This document shows positions 1-35,482 of a DNA stretch of 35,482 bases, in pieces. Both the position numbers and the translations under genes were made by a program. The notes under the pieces were generated by a model. The model made no database searches. It was not told where the DNA came from and saw only the letters and a list, made by a program, of their open reading frames with translations. Numbering within the stretch: position 1 is the stretch's first letter; each line of letters starts with the position of its first letter. The stretch spans positions 1 through 35,482 of the forward strand of contig JAPLYF010000030.1 in assembly GCA_026395675.1 (NCBI GenBank), given 5' to 3'. Source of the stretch: Candidatus Parcubacteria bacterium. Lineage in GTDB: Bacteria; Patescibacteriota; Patescibacteriia; CAIXNZ01.

Positions 1-1
1 T

Positions 2-874
2 TAGATCCTGGCCAGATGATTCCTGATGCCGGCTCAGGTCATAGTCAGTGCGGTAAGCAATGGCCCATAATTCATCCTGGCCAAAAGGAAATTCATATTC
101 CATATCAATTGTCCTTTTGGAATAAAAGGCCCGTTCTTTTTCCGGAATTTCATGGTCATGCATTTTCTTCCGATTCAGGCCTAGCAAGTCCATAAAGCCA
201 TGCATATAATCAACCCAGTCCTCGAAAATCTTTTCCCACTTAGCATGCGGCGCAATAAAATATTCAATTTCCATTTGTTCAAATTCAATGGTTCTGAAAA
301 TAAAATTGCCCGTGGTAATTTCATTTCTAAAGGCCTTGCCAATCTGGCCAATGCCAAACGGAATTTTATTATTAGAGGAATTTAAAACATTTTTAAAATT
401 AATAAATATGGCCTGGGCTGTTTCAGGCCTCAAATAAGTGACAACGCCTTCTTTTTCTACCGGGCCAATCACTGTTTGAAACATGCCGGAAAATAATTTT
501 TCTTCAGTTAATTTCCCCCCGCATTCAGGACATTTGCTGGCATCCTCTATTTTATCTGGCCTATATCTTTTATGGCATTTTTTGCATTCCACCAAAGGAT
601 CTTTGAAATTCTTCACATGACCTGAGGCCTCCCAGACCTTGGGGCTTAAAATAATATTGCCGTCTATGCCAACCATATCTTCCCTAGCTTCAATAAAATA
701 TTTCCACCAGAGATGTTTAATATTGTTTTTAAATTCAACTCCTAAAGGACCATAATCATAGGTTGAAGCCAAACCCCCATAAATTTCTGAACCAGGAAAA
801 ACAAAGCCGCGCCTTTTGCAAAGCGAAACGATTTTTTCCATTTTATTCTCATCTTGTTTTTTCACTTTTTTCAT
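2..874 (-). CDS. glyQS: Glycine--tRNA ligase, single-subunit class II type; runs off the window's left edge
   Basis: Not in the ORF track. Manual translation from ATG 874 gives [45 protein letters not shown] and [12 protein letters not shown], typical GlyRS motifs. Confidence 0.95.
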
Positions 875-917
875 ACTTAAAATTCTAATTTTTATTTAAG
901 ATTTCAACTTTCATAAT

Positions 918-961
918 TCAGCCTTCGCTGACCGAAGTCAGCTACGGCTGACGAAGGTCAG
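918..961. repeat. Family A palindromic micro-element inside a TTCAKAW heptamer tract (~901-980)
   Basis: TCAG CCTTCG CTGA CCGAAG TCAG CTACGG CTGA CGAAGG TCAG; related copies at 3765, 8943, 10589 and 14810. Confidence 0.85.
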
Positions 962-979
962 ATTTCAGAATTCAGAATT

Positions 980-1543
980 CTACACTGTCATTATTTCCTT
1001 TTCTTTATCTTTGGTTAATGTCTCCAGCTTACTGTTCAAATCACTGATATAATTATCCAAATCAGCCAGAAATTGGAATTTATCATCTTGAGTAACTGAC
1101 TTTCCTTTTTCCGCCTCGATAATGGCTTCTTTTACCTTATCGCGAATCTGGCGCAAGCTAATTTTCGCTGTTTCACTTTTTTGGCCTAATAATTTTGTCA
1201 GTTCCTTTCGATTTTCTTCGGTCATGGCCGGTAGTTTGGCAATAATTTTTTCTCCAGTATTAATTATAGATAAACCCAAATTTGAATAATTTAAAGATTT
1301 TTCCACGTCTTTCAAAATATTTTTATCCCAGGGTTCAATGCTAATACTTTTGGCCTCAGGGATGCTGATAGCCGCTAATTGCTTAAGCGGCGTGTGAGCG
1401 CCATAGGATTCGACCATCACGCTTTCAACCAGTGCTGTCTGCGCCCGGCCTGTCCTCAGCGAGCTAATTTCTTTTTTAAAATGCTCAATTGCTTCCTCAA
1501 AATCTTTTTTCTTTTGCTCTATAAATTGATTAGTTTTAATCAT
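980..1543 (-). CDS. frr: Ribosome recycling factor
   Basis: LRTGRA, VESYG, IEPWDK, MTEENRKEL motifs; 187 aa. Confidence 0.97.
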   Translation of the reverse strand: MIKTNQFIEQKKKDFEEAIEHFKKEISSLRTGRAQTALVESVMVESYGAHTPLKQLAAISIPEAKSISIEPWDKNILKDVEKSLNYSNLGLSIINTGEKIIAKLPAMTEENRKELTKLLGQKSETAKISLRQIRDKVKEAIIEAEKGKSVTQDDKFQFLADLDNYISDLNSKLETLTKDKEKEIMTV

Positions 1544-1557
1544 AGAAAAAAATTTTA

Positions 1558-2664
1558 TTATTTTGATTTAACTCCTAGGTAGATTATCTTTGGATTCTGC
1601 TGATCAATCAGCAGTATATTAACCAGACCGCTCGAAGGTGATTTTTGAGTAGCCCAATTTTTACCACCATCGCCAGAAACATAGATTGTTGTGTCAGTCC
1701 CGTAGTAAATAAGTTTATCATTTTTGGGATCAACTGCTATACCATAAATATTGGCACCTCTTTCCGGCGTTATTAATTCTATGTTTTGCCAGGTCAGACC
1801 GCCATCGGTTGTTTTTAAGAGTCCATATTTTGAAGCCATAACCAAAGTGTTTTTTTGCGTCAAATCCTGGACTAAGTTATGAAACTGTTTAGAATCATAA
1901 AAACCGTCCAGACCTTTATTGAGATCTGTTTCTGGTTTTTCATCGCTCCAGGTCTTGCCGCCATCAATGGTTTTAAAAATGCCGGCTGAGTCTGTGGCAA
2001 AATAAATAATGCGCGTATCATCTTTATCAACCAAAATCTGCTTAATCGGATTATTGATGCGTTTTATTGTCTGCCAGGTTTTGCCAAAATCCATACTTTT
2101 TAAAATCTCACCAAAATTATTGGCCGCGTAAACAATATTCTTATTGTAATCTTCTGTGGCCACGGTGCTAAACTGCAATTCCGGACGACTTTTGTCAAAA
2201 TATAGTTCCTGCCAGGTGCGCAGACAATCACTACTTTTATAAATTGACTGGCCTGCTGCGACAAAGACATTGCATTTATTAAAATAATCTACTGCCACGC
2301 TGTTTATGGGTGAAGTGCCAAAAAGCGCTGCCTGCTGCCAGCTCTCTGCTCCAGTCAGAGAATAATATAATCCCTTATCAGTCGCGGCATAAAGGGTGTT
2401 GTGATCAGCAGGATCAAAAATTAACTGATAGATAGAAGTGTCAGAGATAGCCAGTAATTTGCCAGTAACATTGGCTAAAAGTGACTTTGTCTTCCAGCTG
2501 GCGCTGGCATCATCTGATCTAAAAATGCCCAAGGGCAAAGCCAATGCCTGGGGCGAAGACGGCGTATTGGTTATGGAAAAAATGCAGCCAGATATTGTTA
2601 AAGACAAAAAAATAAGGGCCAAAAAAAAGATTGCTTTTTTAATTTTATAATTTATTTTTAGCAT
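1558..2664 (-). CDS. Predicted lipoprotein with BNR/Asp-box beta-propeller (YCF48/sortilin-like)
   Basis: Lipobox ISGC; repeated S/T-x-D-x-G-x-T/S-W Asp-boxes. Confidence 0.8.
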   Translation of the reverse strand: MLKINYKIKKAIFFLALIFLSLTISGCIFSITNTPSSPQALALPLGIFRSDDASASWKTKSLLANVTGKLLAISDTSIYQLIFDPADHNTLYAATDKGLYYSLTGAESWQQAALFGTSPINSVAVDYFNKCNVFVAAGQSIYKSSDCLRTWQELYFDKSRPELQFSTVATEDYNKNIVYAANNFGEILKSMDFGKTWQTIKRINNPIKQILVDKDDTRIIYFATDSAGIFKTIDGGKTWSDEKPETDLNKGLDGFYDSKQFHNLVQDLTQKNTLVMASKYGLLKTTDGGLTWQNIELITPERGANIYGIAVDPKNDKLIYYGTDTTIYVSGDGGKNWATQKSPSSGLVNILLIDQQNPKIIYLGVKSK

Positions 2665-2666
2665 AA

Positions 2667-3689
2667 CTATAAATTTATGACTAAATTTTCCACGGCTAAG
2701 CGCGGATTTATATTATAATTTAAAAATTTCTTTACCTGATTAATATTTTTTTGCAGTTCAATAATTTTGACTGCTTTAATTTCTTTGGCTAAATTCTCTG
2801 TCTCCTTCTGAAAATGTATATTTGAGATCAAATGTCCCAGATTATTTTGGACCAATAAAATATCTCTCAAAAAAAGCTGCCAGTTTTCCAAATTCTGATT
2901 TATGACTACTTGCTTTTCTAAATTAGTAGAACTCTCTGTCAATAAATAGTCAACAATTTTAAATCGGGCTGACAAATTATCACCAAAAAGCTGGATAAAT
3001 TGTTTGGTTCGCTCTAAATAAATTTGATAAAAATCTGGGTTATTATAAAAATTTATAGCTAAGCCAATCTGGCCAAAAACTAAGGCGCTTAAAAGCCGGG
3101 CCTGCTCGCGACTGGCGCCTAAGCCGAGCAAATGATGAAAAATTTTTTCACTGGCAACCGGCTGAAATTTAATCACCCGGCAGCGCGAAATAATGGTCGG
3201 TAAGAGCGAACCCAAATTATTAGCTATTAAAATCAAGCTTGACTTAGGTCTGGGCTCTTCCAGAATTTTCAAAAGAGCATTCTGCGCGCTTTCGCTAAGC
3301 TCCTCAGCTTTTTCAATTAAGGCAATTTTATAGGAATTTAAAAAAGAAGACAAATATAAAATTTTTTGCATTTCTCTCACCTGCTCAACGCTAATATTTT
3401 TCTTGTCCTCTTCTTTTTTTAAAAAATAAACATCCGGGTGAATCCCTTTGTCAAATTGGCTGCAAAAAACACAGTGATTGCAGGGAAAAGATTCGGTGCT
3501 ATTTTGGTTTTGCTCATGATAATCCTGGCACAAAATTGTTTTACTGAATTCCCGAGCCAAAAAATTTTTACCAATATGTTCTTTACCCACAAATAAATAA
3601 GCGTGGGCTAATTTGTTATTAGTCAGATTTTTTTGCAGAAATTGGCTGATTTTTTCCTGACCAACTGTCTGCCAGTTGTATTTTTGCAT
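2667..3689 (-). CDS. holB: DNA polymerase III subunit delta'
   Basis: HAYLFVG, Zn-binding Cys cluster, HPDV, NALLKILEEP, TIISRC. Confidence 0.93.
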   Translation of the reverse strand: MQKYNWQTVGQEKISQFLQKNLTNNKLAHAYLFVGKEHIGKNFLAREFSKTILCQDYHEQNQNSTESFPCNHCVFCSQFDKGIHPDVYFLKKEEDKKNISVEQVREMQKILYLSSFLNSYKIALIEKAEELSESAQNALLKILEEPRPKSSLILIANNLGSLLPTIISRCRVIKFQPVASEKIFHHLLGLGASREQARLLSALVFGQIGLAINFYNNPDFYQIYLERTKQFIQLFGDNLSARFKIVDYLLTESSTNLEKQVVINQNLENWQLFLRDILLVQNNLGHLISNIHFQKETENLAKEIKAVKIIELQKNINQVKKFLNYNINPRLAVENLVINL

Positions 3690-3748
3690 GCTTTAATTAT
3701 AGCTGAAAAATTTGACCAAGTAAAGGTTAAAAAAAACCTGGCTTAAAC

Positions 3749-3877
3749 AAAAGGCTCTGTCATTCCGACCTACGTCGGCCGAAGCCGACTACGGTCGGCG
3801 AAGGCCGAAAGAAAGTGAGGAATCTAATACATCAGTGTAATAGATCCTTCGTTTCTCTCAGGATGACAGAGCCTTTT
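3749..3877. repeat. Nested REP-like composite in the mreB 3' hairpin
   Basis: 15-bp perfect IR AAAAGGCTCTGTCAT (3749-3763) / ATGACAGAGCCTTTT (3863-3877); inner GTCATTCCGA..GAGGAATCT / AGATCCTTCG..TCAGGATGAC pair; family A element at 3765-3808. Confidence 0.8.
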
Positions 3878-4883
3878 ACTTCTGCCCCAAAATTGAGCGT
3901 TTATAAAATTCCAGATTCTCCAAAGCAATGCCAGTGCCTTTGGCCACGCAAAAGAGAGCATCATCAACAACATAAGCCGGAACGCCAGTGGCTTTGGATA
4001 TTAATTGATCAATGTTGCGTAAGAGTGAAGTACCTCCGCTCATGATTATGCCTTTATCAATCACATCAGCAGCTAATTCCGGCGGTGTATGCTGCAGTAC
4101 TTCTTTTACGGTTTCAATAATGCCTTCCAATTGGGATTCGATTGCTTCCACCACATCATTGGTCGTCATGGTAATTATTCTTGGTAAGCCAGTAATCATG
4201 TCCCGACCCCTGACTTCCATGGTTAATGGCTCTTCCAAAGGCAAAGCTGAACCAATATTAATTTTTATGTCCTCAGCTGTTCTCTCGCCAATGGCTAAAT
4301 TATGATTTCTCCTGGTGTATTCCAAGATGGCCTGGTCTAATTTATTACCGCCAATTCTGACTGAAGCGCTAGCGACAATGCCGCCCAATGATATAACAGC
4401 CACTTCGGTTGTTCCTCCGCCACTATCAATAATCATATTGCCCGAAGGACTGCCTATCGGAATATTCGCGCCAATCGCTGCCACAATAGGTTCTTTAATA
4501 ATATAAGCTGCTTTGGCGCCAGCTGCCATGGTCGCATCAATTACCGCTCTTCTTTCAGTTGAGGTAATGCCAGCGGGTACGGCAACCATCACTTCCGGTC
4601 TTAAAAATCTTAAACCGCCTAAGGCCTTATTAATAAAATATCTTAACATTGCCTCGGTTGTTTTATAATCAGCGATCACTCCGTCTTTCAAAGGCCTGGA
4701 GGCAATGATTGTATCCGGTGTTTTGCCGAGCATTTCTTTGGCTTCCAAACCAACGGCCAGGATTTTTTTATCAGTCGTAGAAATAGCCACAACCGATGGT
4801 TCATTAATAACCACCCCTTTTTTGGGTAAATAAACTAAGATATTGGTTGTGCCTAGGTCAATGCCTATTTTTTTTCTAAACAT
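3876..4883 (-). CDS. mreB: Rod shape-determining actin-like protein MreB/Mbl
   Basis: GIDLGTTN, EPSVVA, DSGGGTTEVAVISLGG, GERTAE. Confidence 0.96.
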   Translation of the reverse strand: MFRKKIGIDLGTTNILVYLPKKGVVINEPSVVAISTTDKKILAVGLEAKEMLGKTPDTIIASRPLKDGVIADYKTTEAMLRYFINKALGGLRFLRPEVMVAVPAGITSTERRAVIDATMAAGAKAAYIIKEPIVAAIGANIPIGSPSGNMIIDSGGGTTEVAVISLGGIVASASVRIGGNKLDQAILEYTRRNHNLAIGERTAEDIKINIGSALPLEEPLTMEVRGRDMITGLPRIITMTTNDVVEAIESQLEGIIETVKEVLQHTPPELAADVIDKGIIMSGGTSLLRNIDQLISKATGVPAYVVDDALFCVAKGTGIALENLEFYKRSILGQK

Positions 4884-4892
4884 AGAATTTTC

Positions 4893-4997
4893 CTACGAAA
4901 TTACGAATAAGGTACGAATATACTAATAATCAAAATCTTTACAATTCGTATATTTGCCTGCCTGCCGGCAGGCAGGTAAAAAATTCGTATTTCGTAG
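4893..4997. repeat. TACRAAT/ATTYGTA junction scaffold carrying the 20-bp palindrome CCTGCCTGCCGGCAGGCAGG (4957-4976)
   Basis: Left half has repeated TACGAA(T), right half repeated (A)TTCGTA; the palindrome recurs at 14075 and 16648. Confidence 0.8.
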
Positions 4998-5003
4998 AGC
5001 TAT

Positions 5004-7061
5004 TTAAAAGCTAACCACAAAACTTTTATCCGTATCCAACGCTGCCGAGTATTTATACGAGTTATTAAACCATTCTTTTTGCTCTTCAGCTGGCGTTGCT
5101 GATTTAATATTCTTATCAAATTTTAAGTCCAAAGTCAAATTGGGAATAACGCCTGGCTGTTTCTGAATTAAAAGATTATAAGTCCCCAGGTTTATTTGTT
5201 CTACTATCTTTTTAGGCAGTTTATATTCAAAACTCAAAACGCCTGTTTCATGCGGCTCAATTGAAATAAAAGCGCCAAAGTATGTTTTGTCAAATTCTTG
5301 GCCTTTTTCAATTTGTCCTGGCTGATGCGAGGGATCTTTGATTTTGTCATTTTCCATGGCACCTTGCGAACTGATTAATTCACTGCCCAGGGGGACATAA
5401 ACTCTAGCGTAGGTTCTTAAACGCGTTGACTTCCAGGTAAAATCAGCATTGTTCTTATAGATTATTGTTACCTTGGCAATCAAATCTCCGTTTTTATTCG
5501 CAAATGAATAATTAATAGTTCGGTCCACATATTGATCTGTTTTTAAGCTGGCCATATTACTATCAACCACCATTAAATAATCATTATCAGTCTTCTGGAT
5601 CTCGCCGCCCCAATTTTTCGCCAGAATTAGTTTTTCCAAATCAGGGTCAACACTATAAAACATGACTTGTTTCTGGTCCAGCGCCTTATAAGCTATATCT
5701 AAAAGATCCGGGACTTTACTTAACGGCAAAGTAAAAAGTTTAATTTTAATCTGGTCAGACAACTTTTTAATTATCCCCTTCCTTTCAGCGATCGGTACAT
5801 TTAATTCCTGATAAAGCTTGCCCACCATCAATTCCAGCTGATCCTGATAATTGGTGTCAGTAAAAATCATGTCTTGGGCTACAATCGGACCTGTTAATTT
5901 TAAAAGGCCGCCTAATATTTCCGGCGTTATGGCGATAACACCATACAAATTTTCTTCATACGGTATAACATCGGTAATAATCACGCCTTTTTCTCCGAGA
6001 ATTTTTTGGCCTGACTTTTTAAGATCAATTAAGGCCAGATTTTCTTTCTTATATATATCCAAAGATTTTTGGGCAGTAGTGGGGAAATCAGGCTCCCAGT
6101 TAATATCCCGCAAAGACCAATTTTTCTGCTCCAAATATTTGGCAATTGGCCAGGGCGTCGGCTCCTTGACAATAGGCTGGGCTGAACGGTCCAAATTATA
6201 AACATTATCAGTATCAAATTCTTTAATCTCACCGTCTTGTAATTTCAAAATACCATAAGTGCCAATAAAGCCGCCTGTAGGACGAAGCTCTGAATTATTC
6301 TGCAGTAAAAACAAGTAGGTTTTTGCTTGATCAAAACCAACAACTTTAGGAATAACATCAAGCAGGGGCAAAACATGATCAATTAATTTCTTTACCTTTG
6401 GTAAATTCTCTTTCAAGGGGCTGATGCCGTCTTTTAAAGGTTTAACCAGCCCATTGGCTGGGATTGACTCAATGGCAACGTCAGCTTCGTCAATTTCCTT
6501 CTGGACTTCATTAAGCATGCTTTCTGACTGGACTATTTTATTCAATATTTCTTTCTTCTGCTCAGTAGTGATTGTGGCATAAGTAATTGATTCATTTTTC
6601 AAGGGCGCAGTAATATCATCAATTAATAAAACAACCTTCTGGCCGCTGTCAGTCAATTTAATACCGGCAATCAAAACCTGATCAACTGCCTTGAGTTGCG
6701 TGCCAATATACGGCACAGAGCGCACTAATTTTATCTTGTCCAACAGTTTTTGGGCCAGGTTAAAATCATCATTGGACAATTTGATGGAAGCAGCTGCCTC
6801 TTTAAATTCACGGTTAGTGAGCTGATGCATGGCCAGATCTAAATTGCCTTTGGCTGATAATGAAAATGAATATGCCGCTTGCAAATCTTTATAATATAAA
6901 GCGCCTAAAACAGCCAAAAAAATTATGGCCAAAACCAAAACAGCCAAAAAAATCTTGATTATTAAAACTAAAGATTTTTTCCAATAGGATTTTCTCGGTC
7001 TCTCCGTAATCTGCGAAAAATCAGGTTTAGGAAACTCTAAGTTTTGATTGATTTCTGACAT
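5004..7061 (-). CDS. DUF4012-domain membrane-anchored protein
   Basis: N-terminal TM; YLFLLQNNSELRPTGGFIG, LRDINWEPDFP and QKQPG motifs. Confidence 0.85.
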   Translation of the reverse strand: MSEINQNLEFPKPDFSQITERPRKSYWKKSLVLIIKIFLAVLVLAIIFLAVLGALYYKDLQAAYSFSLSAKGNLDLAMHQLTNREFKEAAASIKLSNDDFNLAQKLLDKIKLVRSVPYIGTQLKAVDQVLIAGIKLTDSGQKVVLLIDDITAPLKNESITYATITTEQKKEILNKIVQSESMLNEVQKEIDEADVAIESIPANGLVKPLKDGISPLKENLPKVKKLIDHVLPLLDVIPKVVGFDQAKTYLFLLQNNSELRPTGGFIGTYGILKLQDGEIKEFDTDNVYNLDRSAQPIVKEPTPWPIAKYLEQKNWSLRDINWEPDFPTTAQKSLDIYKKENLALIDLKKSGQKILGEKGVIITDVIPYEENLYGVIAITPEILGGLLKLTGPIVAQDMIFTDTNYQDQLELMVGKLYQELNVPIAERKGIIKKLSDQIKIKLFTLPLSKVPDLLDIAYKALDQKQVMFYSVDPDLEKLILAKNWGGEIQKTDNDYLMVVDSNMASLKTDQYVDRTINYSFANKNGDLIAKVTIIYKNNADFTWKSTRLRTYARVYVPLGSELISSQGAMENDKIKDPSHQPGQIEKGQEFDKTYFGAFISIEPHETGVLSFEYKLPKKIVEQINLGTYNLLIQKQPGVIPNLTLDLKFDKNIKSATPAEEQKEWFNNSYKYSAALDTDKSFVVSF

Positions 7062-7750
7062 GTTTATTTAAACCAAAATATTTAACAAAATATTTAATAA
7101 AAGAAGCAATGTGCCACCTGGTCATTTTATTAAAAGACCAGTGACTCAAATTTTCCAAAGCCGAAGCCCTCTCATACAAGTGTACCATTTCTGCCTCGGC
7201 CAGATAATAGACCTGATAGTTGCTTTGCCAAAAACGCCGGCACCAATCCATGTCCTCAACATAGAAAAAAAATCTTTCATCCAATAAGCCGACTTTTGTC
7301 AGAGCTTCTTTTCTGACCAGCATGCAAGCGCCCATCACCCAGTCAACTTCCAAATTAGTGGCATGATCAAATTCCAGCATCAAATGCTCATCTAATTCTT
7401 TTTTGGCAAAAGGCAAGCGCCCCAAAGGCGTGCGGCGGTATAAGATTAATCTTGGTGTCTGAAAGGTTCGGCAAGAAATCTGGTATTGGCCGTCTGGACT
7501 GATTAACTTTGGACCAGCTAAACCTACTTCAGGGTTACTTGCCAGCCGCAAACCCCAAATTTTTACCTGTCTGGATAAACTTAAGGCCGGGAAAATTTTC
7601 TTTTATCATTTTTTCACAGCCATCATTAGAACCATTATCAATCACTATTAATTCATAATCAAGATTTTTTACCGTGGCCATAACATTTTTCAAGCACTGC
7701 TTAACCAACCCCTTAGTTTTATAATTTAAGATAATGATTGATAAATTCAT
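7027..7750 (-). pseudogene. Family 2 glycosyltransferase split by an internal deletion/frameshift near 7540
   Basis: N-terminal part (7750-7535: LSIIILNY, VIDNGSND, NLGFAAG) and C-terminal part (7551-7027: VDWVMGAC, DERFFFYVEDMDWC) are in different frames, with about 33 codons missing. Confidence 0.85.
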
Positions 7751-7752
7751 AT

Positions 7753-7844
7753 GGTTACAAATACACTAATCAGTTACTAATAATACTAATTGGAAGTGAG
7801 ATAAATATTAGTATAATTAGTATAAAATTCGTAGATTAGTATCC
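7753..7844. repeat. TACRAAT/ATTYGTA junction scaffold
   Basis: GGTTACAAAT...GATTAGTATCC with internal TACTAAT/ATTAGTA units; fills the intergenic gap. Confidence 0.75.
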
Positions 7845-8875
7845 TAATTAAACCATTTTCTCATTTCCTCATCTTTTATGAGACGGTTTTTCATAATAAA
7901 TTTTCGTTTAACCCTAATGTTTTTTAATCTAGAAAAAAATTCTTTCAAACTGCCTAAGGTCGACCATTCAAAAAATAAAATGTAAAAAAACTTTTTAAAT
8001 TCGTAAAACTTAATTGACAAAAGATAGCGGCCATAAATTCTTAAACTTAAATTTTTTACTAAAACAAATAAATGGTTTTTATATGAATGGTAATTAATGA
8101 ATCTGGCCTTATTTTTTCTTAATTTTAAAGAAGTGAAAAATGAAATCTTTTCCTGGCTTCTTGCGCTGCGCTTGTGGTAAGCCACAGCCCCTGGCACATA
8201 AAAACTCTTCCAACCCCGCCAGCGCAAACGATAAGCCAAGTCCACGTCTTCCTTGTAGCTAAAAAAATCATTGTCAAAAAATTCATCCTGATAGCGGATA
8301 TCATTTAAGGCCTTACGATTATAAAGTGCGCAGGTAGCCGAGACCCCAAAAATTTCCTTGCTTTCCTTAAATTCGCCTGTGTCTTTAAGGCCTGAACCGC
8401 TATCTATTACTCTTTGGCTTTTAAAAATCTTTAAGCCAAGTGAGTCAATTATATCAGTTTTTTGGCTGCTTTTCAAGTCATCAGAGGACTCAAAATCCCA
8501 GCGTAAAATTTTACCTGTCACCGAACCCACATTTTTCTGCTGATCACAAAATTTTATTAATTCTTCCAAAAAATCTTTTTCTAATATCACATCCTGATTT
8601 AAAACTAGCACATACTCTGAATTAGTCCACAAAATCGCCTGGTTATGCGCGCGGCTAAAGCCCAAATTTTCCTTATTTTTGATCAAACGTATTTTTTCAT
8701 TAAAGAGAGGAAAAAAATTTTGTTCAATTATCTGCAGAGTTTTATCAACCGAACCATTATCAATAATAATCAAAAGATAATCCTTAAGGGTTTGTTCTAA
8801 GATTGAATTCAGGCACTCTGCCAAATATTTTTCCCCGTTCCATGTAACCAAATGAATAGAAACCTTCTCCATCAC
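7844..8875 (-). CDS. Family 2 glycosyltransferase
   Basis: IIDNGSVD, NLGFSRAHN, LNQD, FFSYKEDVDLAYR. Confidence 0.92.
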   Translation of the reverse strand: MMEKVSIHLVTWNGEKYLAECLNSILEQTLKDYLLIIIDNGSVDKTLQIIEQNFFPLFNEKIRLIKNKENLGFSRAHNQAILWTNSEYVLVLNQDVILEKDFLEELIKFCDQQKNVGSVTGKILRWDFESSDDLKSSQKTDIIDSLGLKIFKSQRVIDSGSGLKDTGEFKESKEIFGVSATCALYNRKALNDIRYQDEFFDNDFFSYKEDVDLAYRLRWRGWKSFYVPGAVAYHKRSARSQEKISFFTSLKLRKNKARFINYHSYKNHLFVLVKNLSLRIYGRYLLSIKFYEFKKFFYILFFEWSTLGSLKEFFSRLKNIRVKRKFIMKNRLIKDEEMRKWFN

Positions 8876-8942
8876 AAAATTTAAATTAATAATTAATCCC
8901 AGAATGATCCCTTGGCTAGATTTAAGTTTAAAATATCATAAT

Positions 8943-8987
8943 TCAGCCTACGCTCCGCGGTGCGGAGCTTCGGCTGACGAAGGTCAG
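8943..8987. repeat. Family A palindromic micro-element in a TTCAKAW tract
   Basis: TCAG CCTACG [CTCCGCGGTGCGGAG] CTTCGG CTGA CGAAGG TCAG. Confidence 0.8.
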
Positions 8988-9008
8988 ATTTTAGAATTCA
9001 GATTTAAT

Positions 9009-10514
9009 TTATTTTCTCGCTTTAGGCGTGACAAAAAAACCCAAATATTTGCCAATCATCAGGCGCGTCTGGGCCTCAAAAGCTGGCAGGGCTCCAAAAA
9101 TAACTATATTGATTGGCAGCAAAATCCATTGCGCCAGCATAATCAGCCATTTGTATTTAGGGTGCTGTTCTGGCCTAGGCGGTAATAATTTTAAGCTTAA
9201 AATAGCAGAAACAATTATACCTATCATGCCAATACGCATTAAATTCTGTAAAACAAAAGGTGCATTTTGCGCAATGACAGTTGCTTTGATCGCTGGCCCA
9301 GCCACATAAAGTGGTAAACGGCCTAAGACAAAAAGGATCAGTGGCGCAGTTGCCCAGGAATACATGCCTTCACCCAGATTCCAAATATATTTAACTCGAG
9401 TTTTAAAAGGGATCAAATCTTTCTTTTTGTGGAAATGATATAACATATAAGGAAAATGTTCCACACCCCAGCCCCACCTTCTCTGTTGTTTATATAAATT
9501 TTTAAATCCGTCCCAGATTGAAGTCTCAGAAATTACTGTATCCATTGAAACAGGAATATAAATTGGAGTTACCTCATAATCGCCATTATAATTGATAAAG
9601 CACTGCAGAAAAATCCTGGAATCATCAGTCACAATATCTTTTTCCCAAAAACCAACATCAACCAGCGCTTTGAAACTCATGGCATGGGAAGAAAAAGTGT
9701 AAAGCCGATCAGGTCTCATTAATTCAGCCAAAAGCCAGAAGACCGTGGAAAAAGCTGTTATTCTCATGGGCGCCGGAGCATCCCAAATATTATTATTGTA
9801 TAAAACCGCTGGCTGGAAAGATGATCTGGTTGGATTGGGGTGAGTCGCGTAAGCATACGTCAGATAATCAAGATATTTTTGATGTGCTGAAGTATCGCAG
9901 TCAAAATAAGAAACAATAATTTTTTCATAAGGCAAACCCAAGCTGTCAATCATTTCTTTGCTTTTCCAGCCCACCCAATTGGCATTAGCGCCCTTGGCTT
10001 TAATCTCCCCTTCCAAACCATCTGGATGCAAAGTTGTTAAAAGTTTAAAAAATTTATGGCCAAAATTTTCCTTAATTTTTGGTTCAACTGCTTCATAGAC
10101 CTCTTTTTTTCTTTCCTCCCAGGAAATGGCAATCATAATTTTATCAGTCGGATAGCCACAAGCCAAAATTCCATTTAAAGTGGTTTCTAAAACTTCATAG
10201 GGTTCAGAATAAGTCGGCAGAATAAATAAATGATAATATTCCTGCCAATTTGGCAAGGACTCTCTTTTTGCCCGCCAATCAATTTTAATTTGCTTAGCAA
10301 AAGTGCGGGCTGACAAAATTGAATAAAAAACAAAATAAAAAAGACGCAAAACCCAATATAATGAATAAACAATAACAAAATATATAACCCAAAGCGGTTT
10401 AATAAAAGAGAAAACAACTGAACCAATAATAGTACCCCAGACCATTAAACCCGGGATATATTCGCGTCTTCTGTATTTTTTTCTTTCCGCTGGCGTAAAT
10501 TTATCTAAATGCAT
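9009..10514 (-). CDS. Membrane-integrated processive GT2 (cellulose-synthase-like) glycosyltransferase
   Basis: KAKGANAN, DCD, TDD and QQRRW (D,D,D,QxxRW pattern) flanked by TM helices. Confidence 0.85.
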   Translation of the reverse strand: MHLDKFTPAERKKYRRREYIPGLMVWGTIIGSVVFSFIKPLWVIYFVIVYSLYWVLRLFYFVFYSILSARTFAKQIKIDWRAKRESLPNWQEYYHLFILPTYSEPYEVLETTLNGILACGYPTDKIMIAISWEERKKEVYEAVEPKIKENFGHKFFKLLTTLHPDGLEGEIKAKGANANWVGWKSKEMIDSLGLPYEKIIVSYFDCDTSAHQKYLDYLTYAYATHPNPTRSSFQPAVLYNNNIWDAPAPMRITAFSTVFWLLAELMRPDRLYTFSSHAMSFKALVDVGFWEKDIVTDDSRIFLQCFINYNGDYEVTPIYIPVSMDTVISETSIWDGFKNLYKQQRRWGWGVEHFPYMLYHFHKKKDLIPFKTRVKYIWNLGEGMYSWATAPLILFVLGRLPLYVAGPAIKATVIAQNAPFVLQNLMRIGMIGIIVSAILSLKLLPPRPEQHPKYKWLIMLAQWILLPINIVIFGALPAFEAQTRLMIGKYLGFFVTPKARK

Positions 10515-10519
10515 AACTC

Positions 10520-10614
10520 CTACGAATTACGAATAATTTACGAATTTACAAATTTTTAATTTAAATCCCTCCTTACCCTTCTTATTCATCATCCGAAGCT
10601 TTAGCGTAGGATGA
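10520..10614. repeat. Half scaffold (TACGAAT repeats) plus a family A variant at 10589-10614
   Basis: CTACGAATTACGAATAATTTACGAATTTACAAAT; minus strand reads TCAT CCTACG CTAAAG CTTCGG ATGA. Confidence 0.7.
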
Positions 10615-10630
10615 CCCTTCTTTCCTTTTT

Positions 10631-10909
10631 TTATTTTATTTTAAATCCCTCAAGCCCACCAACATAAGGCAACCATTTAATTTCCACTTTTTCAACCAAA
10701 GCCGAATCTGGTCCCGATCTGCACCATTCAGCTAATTTCTCGAGATTAATCTTGTCGCCTTCAGCCAGACATTCAACTGTCCCCAGATCATTATTTTTGA
10801 CCCAGCCAGTTAAACCGAGCTTTTTAGCCATTTTCTGGGTTTCAAAACGAAAAAAGACGCCCTGAACTCGGCCGTGAATTACTAATAGAACTTGGGCTTT
10901 ATCAGCCAT
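10631..10909 (-). CDS. acyP: Acylphosphatase
   Basis: GRVQGVFFR and LTGWVKN signatures. Confidence 0.95.
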   Translation of the reverse strand: MADKAQVLLVIHGRVQGVFFRFETQKMAKKLGLTGWVKNNDLGTVECLAEGDKINLEKLAEWCRSGPDSALVEKVEIKWLPYVGGLEGFKIK

Positions 10910-11048
10910 AAATATTACTTTTAAAATAACATTTTAAGCAAAAAAAATCAAGAAAAAATATTTTGAAAAACCTTGCCTACTTGACTAAATTTAGCTAAAA
11001 TTAAATTAGATAAAGATTAGAATTAGCTTAATAATTTAAAAACGACTT

Positions 11049-14809: not shown

Positions 14810-14850
14810 GCCCTCCGTAGCTCCGAGTAAGACGAGGAGCGAAGGAGGGC
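14810..14850. repeat. Family A variant
   Basis: Minus strand: GCCCT CCTTCG CTCC...GGAG CTACGG AGGGC. Confidence 0.7.
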
Positions 14851-23848: not shown

Positions 23849-24731
23849 ATTTTAATTCAATTTTTTCAAACTCAATCCCCTTGCCAAACCATTTTTCCCC
23901 CAATTCCTGATAAAGTTCTGATAAATCTGTGACAAAAAATTTAATATTGGGAACCGCCGAGGTTGTCATGGTGAGCATAGTCGAACCATCAACCGAGGCG
24001 GCTTTATCCAATTTACTTTCAATCTCATTATGTCTGGCTAAGTAATCAGCCAAGGACTCAGCCACAATTTCCCCTGAATTTAAAACTTTTGTTTGAATAC
24101 CCATAATCCCCTTAACTTCTTTTAACAAAATCGGATAATGGGTACAGCCCAAAATTAAAGTATCAACTTTAGCCAATTTCAATGGCCGCAAATAATATCG
24201 TAAAATCTTTTTGGTTTCCGGCCTATTTTCCCAGCCCTCTTCAATCAAAGGGATGAGCAAAGGACATGCTTGCTGTAAAACTTCCAATTGCGGCTTTTCC
24301 GCCTGAGGCGGATCCGCCTTTGGCGTAAACTTTTCAATTTCCCGAATATAGGCCTGGGAATTAATAGTGCCTTTGGTCCCGATTACTCCAATTTTATTTT
24401 TCGCAACCAAAACAGCTTTTTCAACTACAGGCCTAATTACTCCCAAAACTCGCCTGTCAGGATAATTTTGCAGTAACCATTCCTGCTGAATTTTCCTTAA
24501 AGCTTTAGCCGAAGCAGTATTGCAGGCAATAATTATTAACTCGCAATCCTGCTTAAATAAAAAATTAACTGCCTGCTCTGTAAATTTATAGATTACATCT
24601 TGCGAACGGTTGCCATATGGCGTCCTTGCATTGTCACCCAAGTAAATGTAATCGTATTGAGGCAGTTTTTTTACAATTTCTTTTAAAATAATCAGGCCAC
24701 CCAGGCCTGAATCAAAAATTCCTATTCTCAT
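23847..24731 (-). CDS. murI: Glutamate racemase with two palindromic insertions
   Basis: IGIFDSGLGG, PYG, IACNTAS, LGCTHYP. Confidence 0.96.
   Translation of the reverse strand: MRIGIFDSGLGGLIILKEIVKKLPQYDYIYLGDNARTPYGNRSQDVIYKFTEQAVNFLFKQDCELIIIACNTASAKALRKIQQEWLLQNYPDRRVLGVIRPVVEKAVLVAKNKIGVIGTKGTINSQAYIREIEKFTPKADPPQAEKPQLEVLQQACPLLIPLIEEGWENRPETKKILRYYLRPLKLAKVDTLILGCTHYPILLKEVKGIMGIQTKVLNSGEIVAESLADYLARHNEIESKLDKAASVDGSTMLTMTTSAVPNIKFFVTDLSELYQELGEKWFGKGIEFEKIELK
24294..24325. repeat. Family C palindrome inside murI
   Basis: CTTTTCCGCCTGAGGCGGATCCGCCTTTGGCG, identical to 20607-20638. Confidence 0.9.
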
Positions 24732-24740
24732 ATTTTTATT

Positions 24741-24831
24741 GGGCGAAAATATTTTGGCCAGTCGGTTAGTGTAGGGAACGGTCTAGACCGTTCCCTACGG
24801 AAGCCGGTGTTGTGCCAAAATATTTTCGCCC
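24741..24831. repeat. REPIN-like nested inverted repeat
   Basis: 18-bp perfect IR GGGCGAAAATATTTTGGC / GCCAAAATATTTTCGCCC around the 28-bp palindrome GTAGGGAACGGTCTAGACCGTTCCCTAC. Confidence 0.85.
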
Positions 24832-28130: not shown

Positions 28131-28277
28131 GGTTACAAATCTACGAATTAGCTCCGAAGGTGCCCCTTGGGGGCTACGAATACTACTAATATCTAAAATT
28201 CAATTTAGTTAGTGGATTATTTGTAGATTCGTAGAATATCTGTCCCGAAGGGATCCCTTAGGGATAGATTCGTATCC
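28131..28277. repeat. Junction scaffold with two nested small palindromes (28153-28173, 28243-28264)
   Basis: GGTTACAAATC...GATTCGTATCC terminal IR; TCCC GAA GGGA TCCC TTA GGGA. Confidence 0.8.
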
Positions 28278-34157: not shown

Positions 34158-34322
34158 ATAGAATCTAATTAATTAAAATTGTTTCTTTTTCTAAGCAATA
34201 ATTATTTAAAATTAATTATTGCTTTTTATTTTAACAGGCATTTCTTTTTCTTGAATTATTTGCTAAGATGATGATATGAAATAAGTTTAAAATTCAAAGT
34301 ACAAAATAAAAAATTACAATTT

Positions 34323-34354
34323 TTCATAATTCAGATTTCAGAGTTCATAATTCT
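34323..34354. repeat. Uninterrupted TTCAKAW heptamer tract (empty-site equivalent)
   Basis: TTCATAA TTCAGAT TTCAGAG TTCATAA; a shorter tract occurs at 24840-24862. Confidence 0.65.
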
Positions 34355-34361
34355 AAAACCT

Positions 34362-35482
34362 ATGCCCAAACAACCTCAAACCATATTCACCTGCTCTAAA
34401 TGCGGCGCGCAATTCCCTAAATGGATTGGTCGCTGTGCTTCTTGCGGCGCTTGGGGAACTGTCACTGAAGAAATCCAATCCCCAATCTCTAATCTCCAAT
34501 CTCCAATCCCAAAAATTGATAAGGATCAGCTGATTGATTTCCAAAAAACGCCGCCGCCGAGCCACGCCAGATTGCAAACCCAGATCTCGGAATTTGACCG
34601 AGTACTAGGCGGCGGAATTGTCATCGGTAGCTTGATTTTACTGGGTGGCGAGCCAGGCATTGGCAAATCAACCCTAGTTTTGCAAATCTGTGACCAGATC
34701 AAATCCCCTATTTTATATGTTTCAGGTGAAGAATCAGCTTCCCAGATTAAAATGAGAATTGACAGATTAAATCTGGATTTTGCCAATTTAAAATTCCTTG
34801 GCGAGAATAACATGGAAAGAATCGTGGCCTTTGCCATTGAAGAAAAACCTAGTTTACTAATAATTGACTCAATTCAAACCTTATACTCCTCTGAATTGCC
34901 TTCTGAAGCTGGCTCAATTAACCAAGTGCGAATCTGCACGGTTAAACTTTTAGAAATTGCTAAAAAATTTAATATCCCGATTTTAATTATCGGCCATATA
35001 ACCAAAGACGGCCTGGTGGCCGGCCCCAAATCATTGGAACATTTAGTTGACGCTGTCCTCTACCTTGAAAGTTCAAGCAAAGATGATTTCCGCCTTTTGC
35101 GCTGCACCAAAAACCGTTTTGGCTCTACCAATGAATTGGGAGTATTCAATATGACCAGCCAGGGCTTGCTGGAAGTTAAAAATCCTTCTGAACTTTTTCT
35201 GCCGCAAAACCAGGAGCCGATTTCCGGCTCTGCTCTCACCTGCATAATGGAAGGCAGCCGGCCGTTTTTAATTGAAGTCCAGGCCCTAGCCAGTAAAACT
35301 CTATTTGGCTATCCCCAAAGAAAAACCGCTGGCTTTGATTTAAATAGATTGCAGATGTTAATCGCGGTCTTAATTAAAAGAGCTAATATTCCTTTAGTTA
35401 ACCAGGATGTGCATCTTAATGTCACTGGCGGTTTGAAAATCACGGAAACCGGCGCTGATTTGGCTGTTTGCCTGGCTATTAT
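34362..35482 (+). CDS. radA: DNA repair protein RadA/Sms; runs off the window's right edge
   Basis: Not in the ORF track. ATG 34362; CSKCG..WIGRCASCGAW Zn finger, GGEPGIGKST, YVSGEES, KNRFG. Confidence 0.96.
   Translation, partial: MPKQPQTIFTCSKCGAQFPKWIGRCASCGAWGTVTEEIQSPISNLQSPIPKIDKDQLIDFQKTPPPSHARLQTQISEFDRVLGGGIVIGSLILLGGEPGIGKSTLVLQICDQIKSPILYVSGEESASQIKMRIDRLNLDFANLKFLGENNMERIVAFAIEEKPSLLIIDSIQTLYSSELPSEAGSINQVRICTVKLLEIAKKFNIPILIIGHITKDGLVAGPKSLEHLVDAVLYLESSSKDDFRLLRCTKNRFGSTNELGVFNMTSQGLLEVKNPSELFLPQNQEPISGSALTCIMEGSRPFLIEVQALASKTLFGYPQRKTAGFDLNRLQMLIAVLIKRANIPLVNQDVHLNVTGGLKITETGADLAVCLAI

Follow-up and report, generated by a model that had tools for sequence, protein, structure and literature searches.

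A 40-base hairpin element in a Parcubacteria genome that stands beside a host word matching its own arms

Why should a 44-base stretch in a bacterial intergenic spacer repeat the 4-base word that flanks it, or the complement of that word, at 5 regularly spaced positions? The question is raised by positions 918-961 of the window (the whole stretch of 35,482 nucleotides analyzed, from a Candidatus Parcubacteria contig), which, together with positions 3765-3808, match exactly the pattern X-CCTWCG-X'-CCGWAG-X-CTWCGG-X'-CGWAGG-X, where X' is the reverse complement of X. At 918-961 (X = TCAG), the arms TCAG/CTGA/TCAG/CTGA/TCAG are separated by the hexamers CCTTCG, CCGAAG, CTACGG, and CGAAGG; at 3765-3808 (X = CCGA), the arms CCGA/TCGG/CCGA/TCGG/CCGA are separated by CCTACG, CCGAAG, CTACGG, and CGAAGG. 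The 36-base core, CCTWCG-N4-CCGWAG-N4-CTWCGG-N4-CGWAGG, occurs with zero mismatches at these 2 plus-strand loci and nowhere else in the window, and its expected number by chance, estimated from 100 dinucleotide-preserving shuffles of the window, is 0.00. The minus strand also matches the core at 918-961 and 3765-3808, with 2 and 3 mismatches, respectively.

In the first element, arm 1 (918-921) is the copy of TCAG that was already in the host tract: paralogous tracts free of the insert, at 34331-34334 and on another contig (C35, 9741-9798), keep one TCAG. The inserted unit, delimited by its sequence, the pattern match, and the folds, comprises the 40 bases 922-961, in which hexamers 1 to 4 occupy 922-927, 932-937, 942-947, and 952-957, and arm 2 (X'), arm 3 (X), arm 4 (X'), and arm 5 (X) occupy 928-931, 938-941, 948-951, and 958-961. 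The tract that received the insert is AT-rich, carries TCAG every 7 bases, and spans 905-980 (905-917 and 962-980). The second five-arm element, supported by pattern and folds, is hosted by a larger palindromic repeat (3749-3877) with 15-base inverted ends (3749-3763 and 3863-3877).

An asymmetric relative of 45 bases (X = CTGA) lies on the minus strand at 8943-8987, in the same host tract as 918-961, and reads X-CCTTCG-X'-CCGAAG-[15-base hairpin]-CGTAGG-X. The first-pass annotation had described it as keeping the outer design around a different core, and that core is the 15-base hairpin. Two further places, earlier taken for partial copies near 10589 (X = TCAT) and 14810 (X = CCCT), are simpler plus-strand units of the form X-CCGWAG-inner-CGWAGG-X': a 26-base unit at 10589-10614, recognized by sequence and folds (X-CCGAAG-CTTTAG-CGTAGG-X'), and a unit with a 19-base inner hairpin at 14811-14849. 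The 4 window copies all lie in spacers of co-directional minus-strand genes, between frr and a class II aminoacyl-tRNA synthetase gene, between mreB and the gene for a DNA polymerase III delta-type subunit, between 2 glycosyltransferase genes, and between an acylphosphatase and a glycosyltransferase gene. Copies of a twin-hairpin cassette, of CCGAAGG and CCTTGGG types, are present at 28150-28175 and 28241-28266.

The uninterrupted paralogue of the 918 host tract, on the plus strand at 34325-34352, had also been singled out for its single TCAG, which we place at 34331-34334; it ends approximately 10 bases before an ATG at 34363. Insert-free tracts with a 7-base period are found just upstream of start codons in the window (34316-34352) and on contigs C89 (12295-12323) and C61 (1121-1149), and similar AT-rich tracts (TTCATAA- or TTCAGAA-like) at C35 4733-4763 and C32 10915-10945 end approximately 10 to 15 bases before start codons. 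Judged by their sequence, such tracts with CATAAT words may be candidate promoters of short-leader transcripts; they are also favored landing sites of the elements. The idea that the flanking X words are scars of former elements was rejected, as identical 7-base tracts exist without any insert.

The 3' 34 bases of the five-arm element fold into the same hairpin on both strands, with the first 10 bases free; for 918-961, this stable hairpin comprises 928-961 of the top strand and 918-951 of the bottom strand. It consists of an outer stem of 6 pairs, in which an arm and CC face GG and an arm, followed by a symmetric G-W-A/G-W-A internal loop, an inner stem of 6 pairs, and a TWCG loop. The 44 bases can thus be read as 2 opposite-strand hairpin units of 34 bases, offset by 10 bases, and hexamers 1 and 4 (CCTWCG and CGWAGG) form perfect inverted repeats. 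The predicted RNA fold of 918-961 has a free energy of −21.7 kcal/mol, compared with a shuffle mean of −10.8, and the DNA fold −11.3, compared with −5.3. A search with Rfam 15 gave no match in the window at the gathering threshold and only tRNA and tmRNA in 4 related loci.

Filled and empty versions of the same site reveal what was inserted. In a sister genome (G001, contig C1 near 168129; locus L024), a RAYT-like gene is interrupted by a TTGG element after the Trp of the DWDY motif, and the intact homologue in the host genome (contig C79, 1559-2083) has a single TTGG at the corresponding site; the flanks of the interrupted gene continue in frame once the 40 bases are ignored, and the 40 bases break the frame. 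On contig C53 (approximately 1985-2112; L205), a second tRNA-Leu(CAG) is split in its D-loop by a five-arm element with X = TTGG, and ARAGORN calls this tRNA only after in silico removal of 40 bases, with TTGG left in the D-loop. The split copy has a weak acceptor stem and adjoins an intact tRNA-Leu(CAG) (C53 2123-2207), and it may be a dying duplicate.

For a broader view, in silico empty sites were built for 154 elements and searched for look-alikes. Empty-like matches were obtained for 20 of the 154 elements, in 31 rows, of which 2 are the element's own flank and several are similar low-complexity tracts; in 14 rows, representing 9 elements, the 12-base junction is identical and ungapped. 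The clearest orthologous filled/empty pair, L160 and contig C6, is drawn from contigs that are 85% identical overall and 100% identical over the 64 bases around the site, and the pairs L120/C31 and L190/C35 also look orthologous from their sequences because the aligned blocks bracket the site. A filled copy with 92% identity over 119 bases to window 3754-3872 (L161) has empty counterparts at C65 11526, C29 3897, C21 9940, and C54 1602, each with one CCGA. No footprints were seen at the empty sites, where one X is kept. At the level of sequence comparison, these pairs establish that each five-arm stretch is an exact 40-base insertion next to a host X already present. The first-pass annotation had recognized X as host sequence, which the single X of the empty counterparts bears out, and had reasoned that a plain target duplication cannot account for X inside the element; we agree, and the element instead carries the complement of its own target.

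Some comparisons were set aside. The corresponding spacer in the sister genome (L007) and those in other relatives lack the element, and at approximately 70% identity they are too diverged to serve as empty sites. Contigs of 4 public runs covering window 1-11000 showed no 40-base presence/absence difference among the joints listed, rare alleles being beyond what contigs can show. Contigs of runs X1, X2, and X3 stop near 3765-3808, and those of X3 also near 918-961; in a related strain in run X3, the spacer 8857-9009 is replaced by 133 other letters.

The host genome (1,043,565 bases, 36.8% GC, 89 contigs, 92% complete) contains 9 five-arm loci, 8 asymmetric loci with a fixed hairpin in place of arms 3 and 4, and, among matches listed on both strands with one arm mismatch allowed, 137 units of the form X-CCGWAG-inner-CGWAGG-X', the inner part being CTTTAG in 24 of them and a 15-base hairpin or X'-CTWCGG-X in the rest. 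Chains of hexamers in this genome comprise either the full 4 or 2 plus the hairpin plus 1, are never longer, and include no 20-base half products; a reading as open-ended chains of period 10 was rejected, since only these 2 forms occur. At least 4 X classes coexist (TCAG, TCGG, TTGG, and TTTG), and a degenerate copy on contig C17 adds CAGG. The outer arms are complementary to the element's own arms 2 and 4 at 9/9 five-arm loci. The asymmetric loci, which were detected without using the arms and span TCAG, TCGG, TTGG, and TTTG, have arm 1 equal to arm 5 in 8/8 cases and arm 2 as their complement in 7/8, and their core hairpin is unrelated to X.

Orientation in the host genome is uneven. Single X-CCGWAG...CGWAGG-X' units have their purine-rich form on the C-rich strand in 65 of 84 cases (19 on the G-rich strand; p = 5e-7), a bias that is confounded with transcription direction, and they are antisense to the flanking genes in 31 of 41 cases (10 sense) and to crude ORF calls in 11 of the 12 cases inside them. 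The asymmetric form is oriented on the G-rich strand 3 times and on the C-rich strand 7 times. Several copies lie close to RNA genes: a tRNA-Val and tRNA-Ile pair is bracketed by 2 TCGG-armed elements on contig C89 (1831-2360; L208), and others lie approximately 30 to 350 bases from tmRNA (C68) and tRNA-Gln (C73). On contig C28 (6162-6243), a five-arm element is itself split in its central arm by approximately 38 bases of AT-rich sequence.

Among 40 relatives of the host, the five-arm core is present in 7 of the 13 genomes of its own family and in none of the 27 genomes from other families of the class. A scan of one genome per species yielded 58 stretches with the core, from records whose titles represent at least 8 phylum-level groups, including Patescibacteria, Planctomycetota, Verrucomicrobia, Nitrospirae, Binatia, delta- and alphaproteobacterial groups, Bacteroidales, and others; metagenomes added at least 118 further stretches. 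After removal of duplicates, genomes and metagenomes together gave a set of at least 161 distinct elements, in which many of the Binatia and delta-type copies are nonindependent, belonging to one larger repeat with a shared arm mismatch. The 151 elements scored occupy approximately 73 distinct flank contexts with boundaries alike in all, and the scaffold is near-identical across copies whose flanks range in GC content from 0.15 to 0.81. Such near-identity from 15% to 81% GC flanks suggests either that the element has spread widely by horizontal transfer or that its enzyme is very widespread.

The larger repeat just mentioned is approximately 250 bases long and encloses the five-arm element, with CCGT for CCGA as the shared arm mismatch, at L032, L040, L062, L063, L067, and many metagenome loci (Binatia, delta-proteobacterial, and Syntrophobacter records); none of the Rfam families matched it. 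One locus in a record labeled "uncultured Gammaproteobacteria" (L083) has the same element and 30-base flanks as L014, from genome G004 of the host's family, and the label or the binning of that record may be wrong. In 4 relatives (L008, L009, L010, and L012), the class II aminoacyl-tRNA synthetase gene orthologous to that at window 2-874 contains, a few codons from its start, an in-frame simple unit of 26 bases that reads roughly Ser-Ala-Ser-Ala-Lys-Ala-Thr-Ala-Asp; the window's gene is without the unit.

How the arms come to match the flank is the central issue. The earlier proposal was that the element is built at its site from the flanking 4-mer, by repeated fold-back copying and addition of fixed linker hexamers. 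The accompanying observation, that the hexamers are fixed and the arms vary together, is upheld by the collection: among the 161 copies listed, both outer arms equal the central arm in 120, and all 5 arms match in 85, and this agreement of 5 arms with the flank word, like the presence of X in the host beforehand, would suit in-place building. The origin proposed from it fares otherwise. Only 8 X words are in use among the 85 copies listed with 5 matching arms, and 6 central-arm classes, each a word with its complement (CCGA 91, CCCG 24, CCAA 17, CAAA 8, CTGA 8, and CTAA 4), take in 152 of the 161 copies listed, with few singles besides. A small set of fixed X variants, which the first-pass annotation itself had named as a pattern that would tell against its proposal, is what was found. 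Identical cores also recur: in sister genome G001, the same 36-base core is present at 4/5 TTGG loci and at 3/3 TTTG loci, and the choices at W differ between the classes, a T/A choice that goes with X and again speaks against construction in place; the TTGG core recurs in 3 genera, and 919-961 of the window, 43 of the 44 bases, is 100% identical to a stretch in the genome of another genus (G007).

The mismatched copies are equally informative. In 12 elements both outer arms are deviant, and in 8 of the 12 the outer arms are identical to each other and one transition away from donor-type inner arms, as they are at C73 229. Because identical outer arms persist beside differing, donor-type inner arms, the arms were not copied from the flank. 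Imperfect arms include G-T pairs, and in one copy (L054) arm 1 pairs with arm 4 and arm 2 with arm 5, yet arm 1 differs from arm 5. Also counted against building in place are the core hairpin of the asymmetric form, which has no relation to X, and the addition of specific hexamers without a template, an activity of which we know no example. We therefore give this origin almost no chance. The observations fit arms that would be inherited with a preformed 40-base cassette, in a few subfamilies differing in X.

One genome accommodates at least 4 X classes, and every class stands next to its own X; the address therefore travels with the element. A target preference set by a protein cannot vary with the element within one cell, so the target would be read by the element's nucleic acid, through pairing in a transposition complex or through microhomology. 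Our main reading, to which we assign a probability of roughly 45% on the basis of sequence and of analogy with known systems, is single-strand transposition guided by pairing. The 40-base nonautonomous element would land only beside a host word matching its own arms, its address being read by base pairing of X' against the target X, and it would move as single-stranded DNA by means of a Y1 transposase (tyrosine HUH) of RAYT or IS200/IS605 type acting in trans. The guide would be arm 2 (X'), located where the hairpin has its 5' foot; arm 1, in the flank, would serve as the target and be cleaved on the left, with cleavage on the right at arm 5, and the excised 40 bases would leave a single X behind. 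The inner hairpin would be made by arms 3 and 4, through which the bottom strand acquires an identical layout, and either strand could then be mobilized.

Several observations bear on guide pairing. Arm 2 does lie directly 5' of the folded hairpin, the guide position at the sequence level, and the targets include hairpin loops, namely, a tRNA D-loop and the flanks of L200 and L153, which are inverted repeats. Single-strand transfer would suit the bias of single units to the C-rich strand, confounded though it is with transcription direction, and targets that are hairpin loops and slippage-prone tracts. Against it, the asymmetric form trends the other way from what simple lagging-strand activity of the strand with the hairpin would produce; the identical deviant outer arms (8/12 and C73 229) resemble a true duplication, which IS200/IS605 elements do not make; and the arm pairing of L054 is more easily reconciled with a rule of structure alone than with a guide. 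A broader claim, which we hold a little more tentatively still, is that this would be the smallest known self-addressed transposon: a symmetric 40-base substrate with a single hairpin and 4-base guide arms, present in at least 8 phylum-level groups, moved by an HUH or another enzyme, and retargeted by concerted, mostly transition-type changes (TCGG, TCAG, TTGG, and TTAG, with TTTG and CGGG also seen).

The candidate enzymes were sought by protein family. Y1_Tnp (PF01797) has 9 matches in the host genome, 6 of which individually reach the family cut-off, and is found in 8/8 related genomes with the element and in 5/5 distant carriers tested, compared with a background of 6/14 control genomes, although kinship confounds this co-occurrence, as 13/13 genomes of the family have Y1 with or without the element. 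One relative with a complete genome (G019) contains 3 simple units but gave no match to Y1. The host genome, at 92% completeness, has 1 rve match and none to DDE_Tnp_1, DDE_3, IS110, or TnpB; Y2_Tnp (PF04986) has no match there, and the control genomes gave none either. At the level of enzyme availability, the Y1 genes and the scarcity of other transposases favor the single-strand reading. No element units were found near the Y1 genes at 20 loci in 5 carrier genomes, with flanks of approximately 2 kb. In the other direction, 176 element loci (1.0 Mb) were compared by tblastn with the 8 RAYT-like proteins of the host genome, and only 2 of the loci contain a homologue, at distances of 3 and 11 kb. 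Clustering of 2434 ORFs within 3 kb of elements produced no real recurring protein family, the 2 large clusters being repeat translations; the lack of linkage to Y1 genes or other proteins weighs against the single-strand reading. A long element with the same ends carrying a transposase was not found in the host genome, where the sole pair of such ends spans 2 tRNA genes. The RAYT-like genes of the host genome, located on contigs C88, C6, C87, C79/C4, C41, C71, and C44, are flanked by other hairpins at the 8 loci inspected. At C88 (approximately 23950-24100 and 24750-24830) and C87 (approximately 3800-3900), simple units followed by CAGG or CAAG are present in the loops of hairpins flanking 2 RAYT-like genes, and the CTTTAG loop is common to these hairpins and the simple units; a TTTA loop is described for a Marinomonas REP (PMC8266576).

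The probability that guide pairing leaves over goes mostly to an enzyme that makes duplications, to template switching, or to an enzyme so far unrecognized. A miniature element of the double-strand cut-and-paste type would have 6-base terminal inverted repeats and generate a true 4-base target duplication by a staggered cut, with the arms alike since only insertions that complete the hairpin stay mobile or are kept. The perfect inverted repeats of hexamers 1 and 4, the deviant outer arms that are identical to each other, and the one rve-type integrase gene of the host genome are all in keeping with such an element. A preference set by a protein, however, cannot yield at least 4 X classes that each match their own inner arms (9/9 and 7/8), when the chance match of a 4-base word is 1/256, and neither a long element with these ends nor the DDE_Tnp_1, DDE_3, and IS110 families could be found in a genome that is 92% complete; the empty sites, moreover, are without footprints. 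We consider cut-and-paste unlikely. Less probable again is template switching during replication, with no dedicated enzyme, in which a nascent strand would leave at X, anneal to X' of a fork-stalling donor copy, copy to the next X, and return. It would explain why the insert is bounded by a 4-base identity, why the targets are slippage-prone 7-base tracts and hairpin loops, and why no linked enzyme was found, but with an X in mid-element it predicts that 20-base returns should be common, and the host genome has no half products. Boundaries that stay constant in approximately 73 flank contexts (151 elements), and hexamers that are invariant across phyla while the arms drift, suggest sequence-specific recognition instead, and 4 bases are very little identity for repeated jumps between loci.

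The pattern might, alternatively, represent a conserved RNA or DNA structure, such as a terminator, a transcript stabilizer, or a protein-binding site, that is selected in place with arms covarying to keep the pairing. Its very stable folds on both strands, the position of all window copies between co-directional genes, and the G-T pairs in imperfect arms are what such a structure might display, and published REPs are thought to act partly as RNA, according to the account in PMC3733652. The presence/absence at matching sites nevertheless denotes insertion, disruptive in a tRNA gene and a protein gene; no Rfam family matched, and transcription of the single units would mostly yield their weaker-folding strand (31 antisense versus 10 sense). 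We judge selection in place to be very improbable as the origin of the element, which may still have a secondary use for the host.

The guide-pairing reading takes its closest precedent from the IS200/IS605 elements. In IS608, as described in PMC3201880, each hairpin foot is preceded on its 5' side by 4 bases that pair with the tetranucleotide used for cleavage and as target; insertion is redirected by altering the left guide, and the target remains intact after excision. The IS200/IS605 elements and PATEs share with the 40-base element a tetranucleotide at the 5' foot of a hairpin that is complementary to the word at the insertion point, and PATEs are likewise short, end-only derivatives that can be moved in trans (PMC3201880, PMC7290912). 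Excision in the proposed model would also leave the target word intact, and Y1 genes are present in every carrier genome tested, which speaks of availability, not of linkage. The differences are substantial. IS608 has 2 different ends with different hairpins, 19 and 10 bases from the cleavage sites (PMC3201880), whereas the 40-base element has one hairpin per strand, and only its left side has a linker, of 6 bases. Its left and right words are identical and give the appearance of a target duplication, its architecture is the same on both strands, and, unlike IS200/IS605 elements, it has no linked tnpA or tnpB.

REPs, BIMEs, and their RAYTs offer the second comparison. The 5' GTAG of REPs acts as a guide (PMC8266576), and the GTAG REP families include alternative complementary stems, G-T pairs, dimers, and copies in genes and in other palindromes (PMC3733652). 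Like these small, GC-rich, high-copy palindromes between co-directional genes (PMC3733652), the 40-base element has subfamilies with alternative complementary stem residues, tolerates G-T pairs, and occurs within genes and other palindromes. On each of its strands, G[AT]AG stands just 5' of the 14-base inner hairpin; degenerate variants of the tag are allowed in published families, GAAG not being among those listed in the part of PMC3733652 drawn on here. REP dimers likewise place inverted partners on the 2 strands, but side by side, whereas the partners in the 40-base element overlap by 24 bases, and its outer stem encloses the tag. Flanking host words that equal the arms, and filled/empty pairs that define a 40-base unit, do not feature in the sections of the REP accounts considered here (PMC3733652, PMC8266576). 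Nor is there a REPtron for the five-arm family, the RAYT-like genes being flanked by other hairpins.

Other small repeats resemble the element in part. In-frame palindromic elements of the Rickettsia type differ from it in that 40 bases are not a multiple of 3 and break the frame, although its simpler relatives of 26 to 30 bases do occur in frame. Classical miniature inverted-repeat elements and the mobile GC clusters or double-hairpin elements of fungal mitochondria are similar in having short terminal inverted repeats, short direct repeats at their ends, no coding capacity, and GC-rich hairpins in AT-rich DNA, but in them the enzyme determines which word is duplicated, and that word does not follow changes in the internal sequence. 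Miniature elements of DDE type differ further, in that the 40-base element has no autonomous partner that could be found and at least 4 of its target words coexist in the host genome. In summary, the element would work like an end-only derivative of IS200/IS605 and looks like an overlapping REP dimer, and it belongs to neither, having one hairpin and no REPtron; its novelty lies in arms that match the target and in a defined unit of 40 bases. No published description was found in the literature searched, in line with the first-pass annotation, which had not recognized the element as a described one; the figures and family tables of PMC3733652, which that search did not cover, may hold a related family.

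If the arms are the address, the element constitutes a natural retargeting experiment, in which one invariant scaffold of hexamers is combined with at least 6 different 4-base guides, each at its own target, and the rules of guide-target pairing could be tested with 40-base oligonucleotides. For the organisms that carry them, the five-arm elements explain the nested hairpin mosaics in the spacers of these very small genomes, as well as assembly breaks, since contigs of 3 runs end at an element. The cassettes can also knock out genes, as exemplified by the tRNA-Leu copy and the RAYT-like gene.
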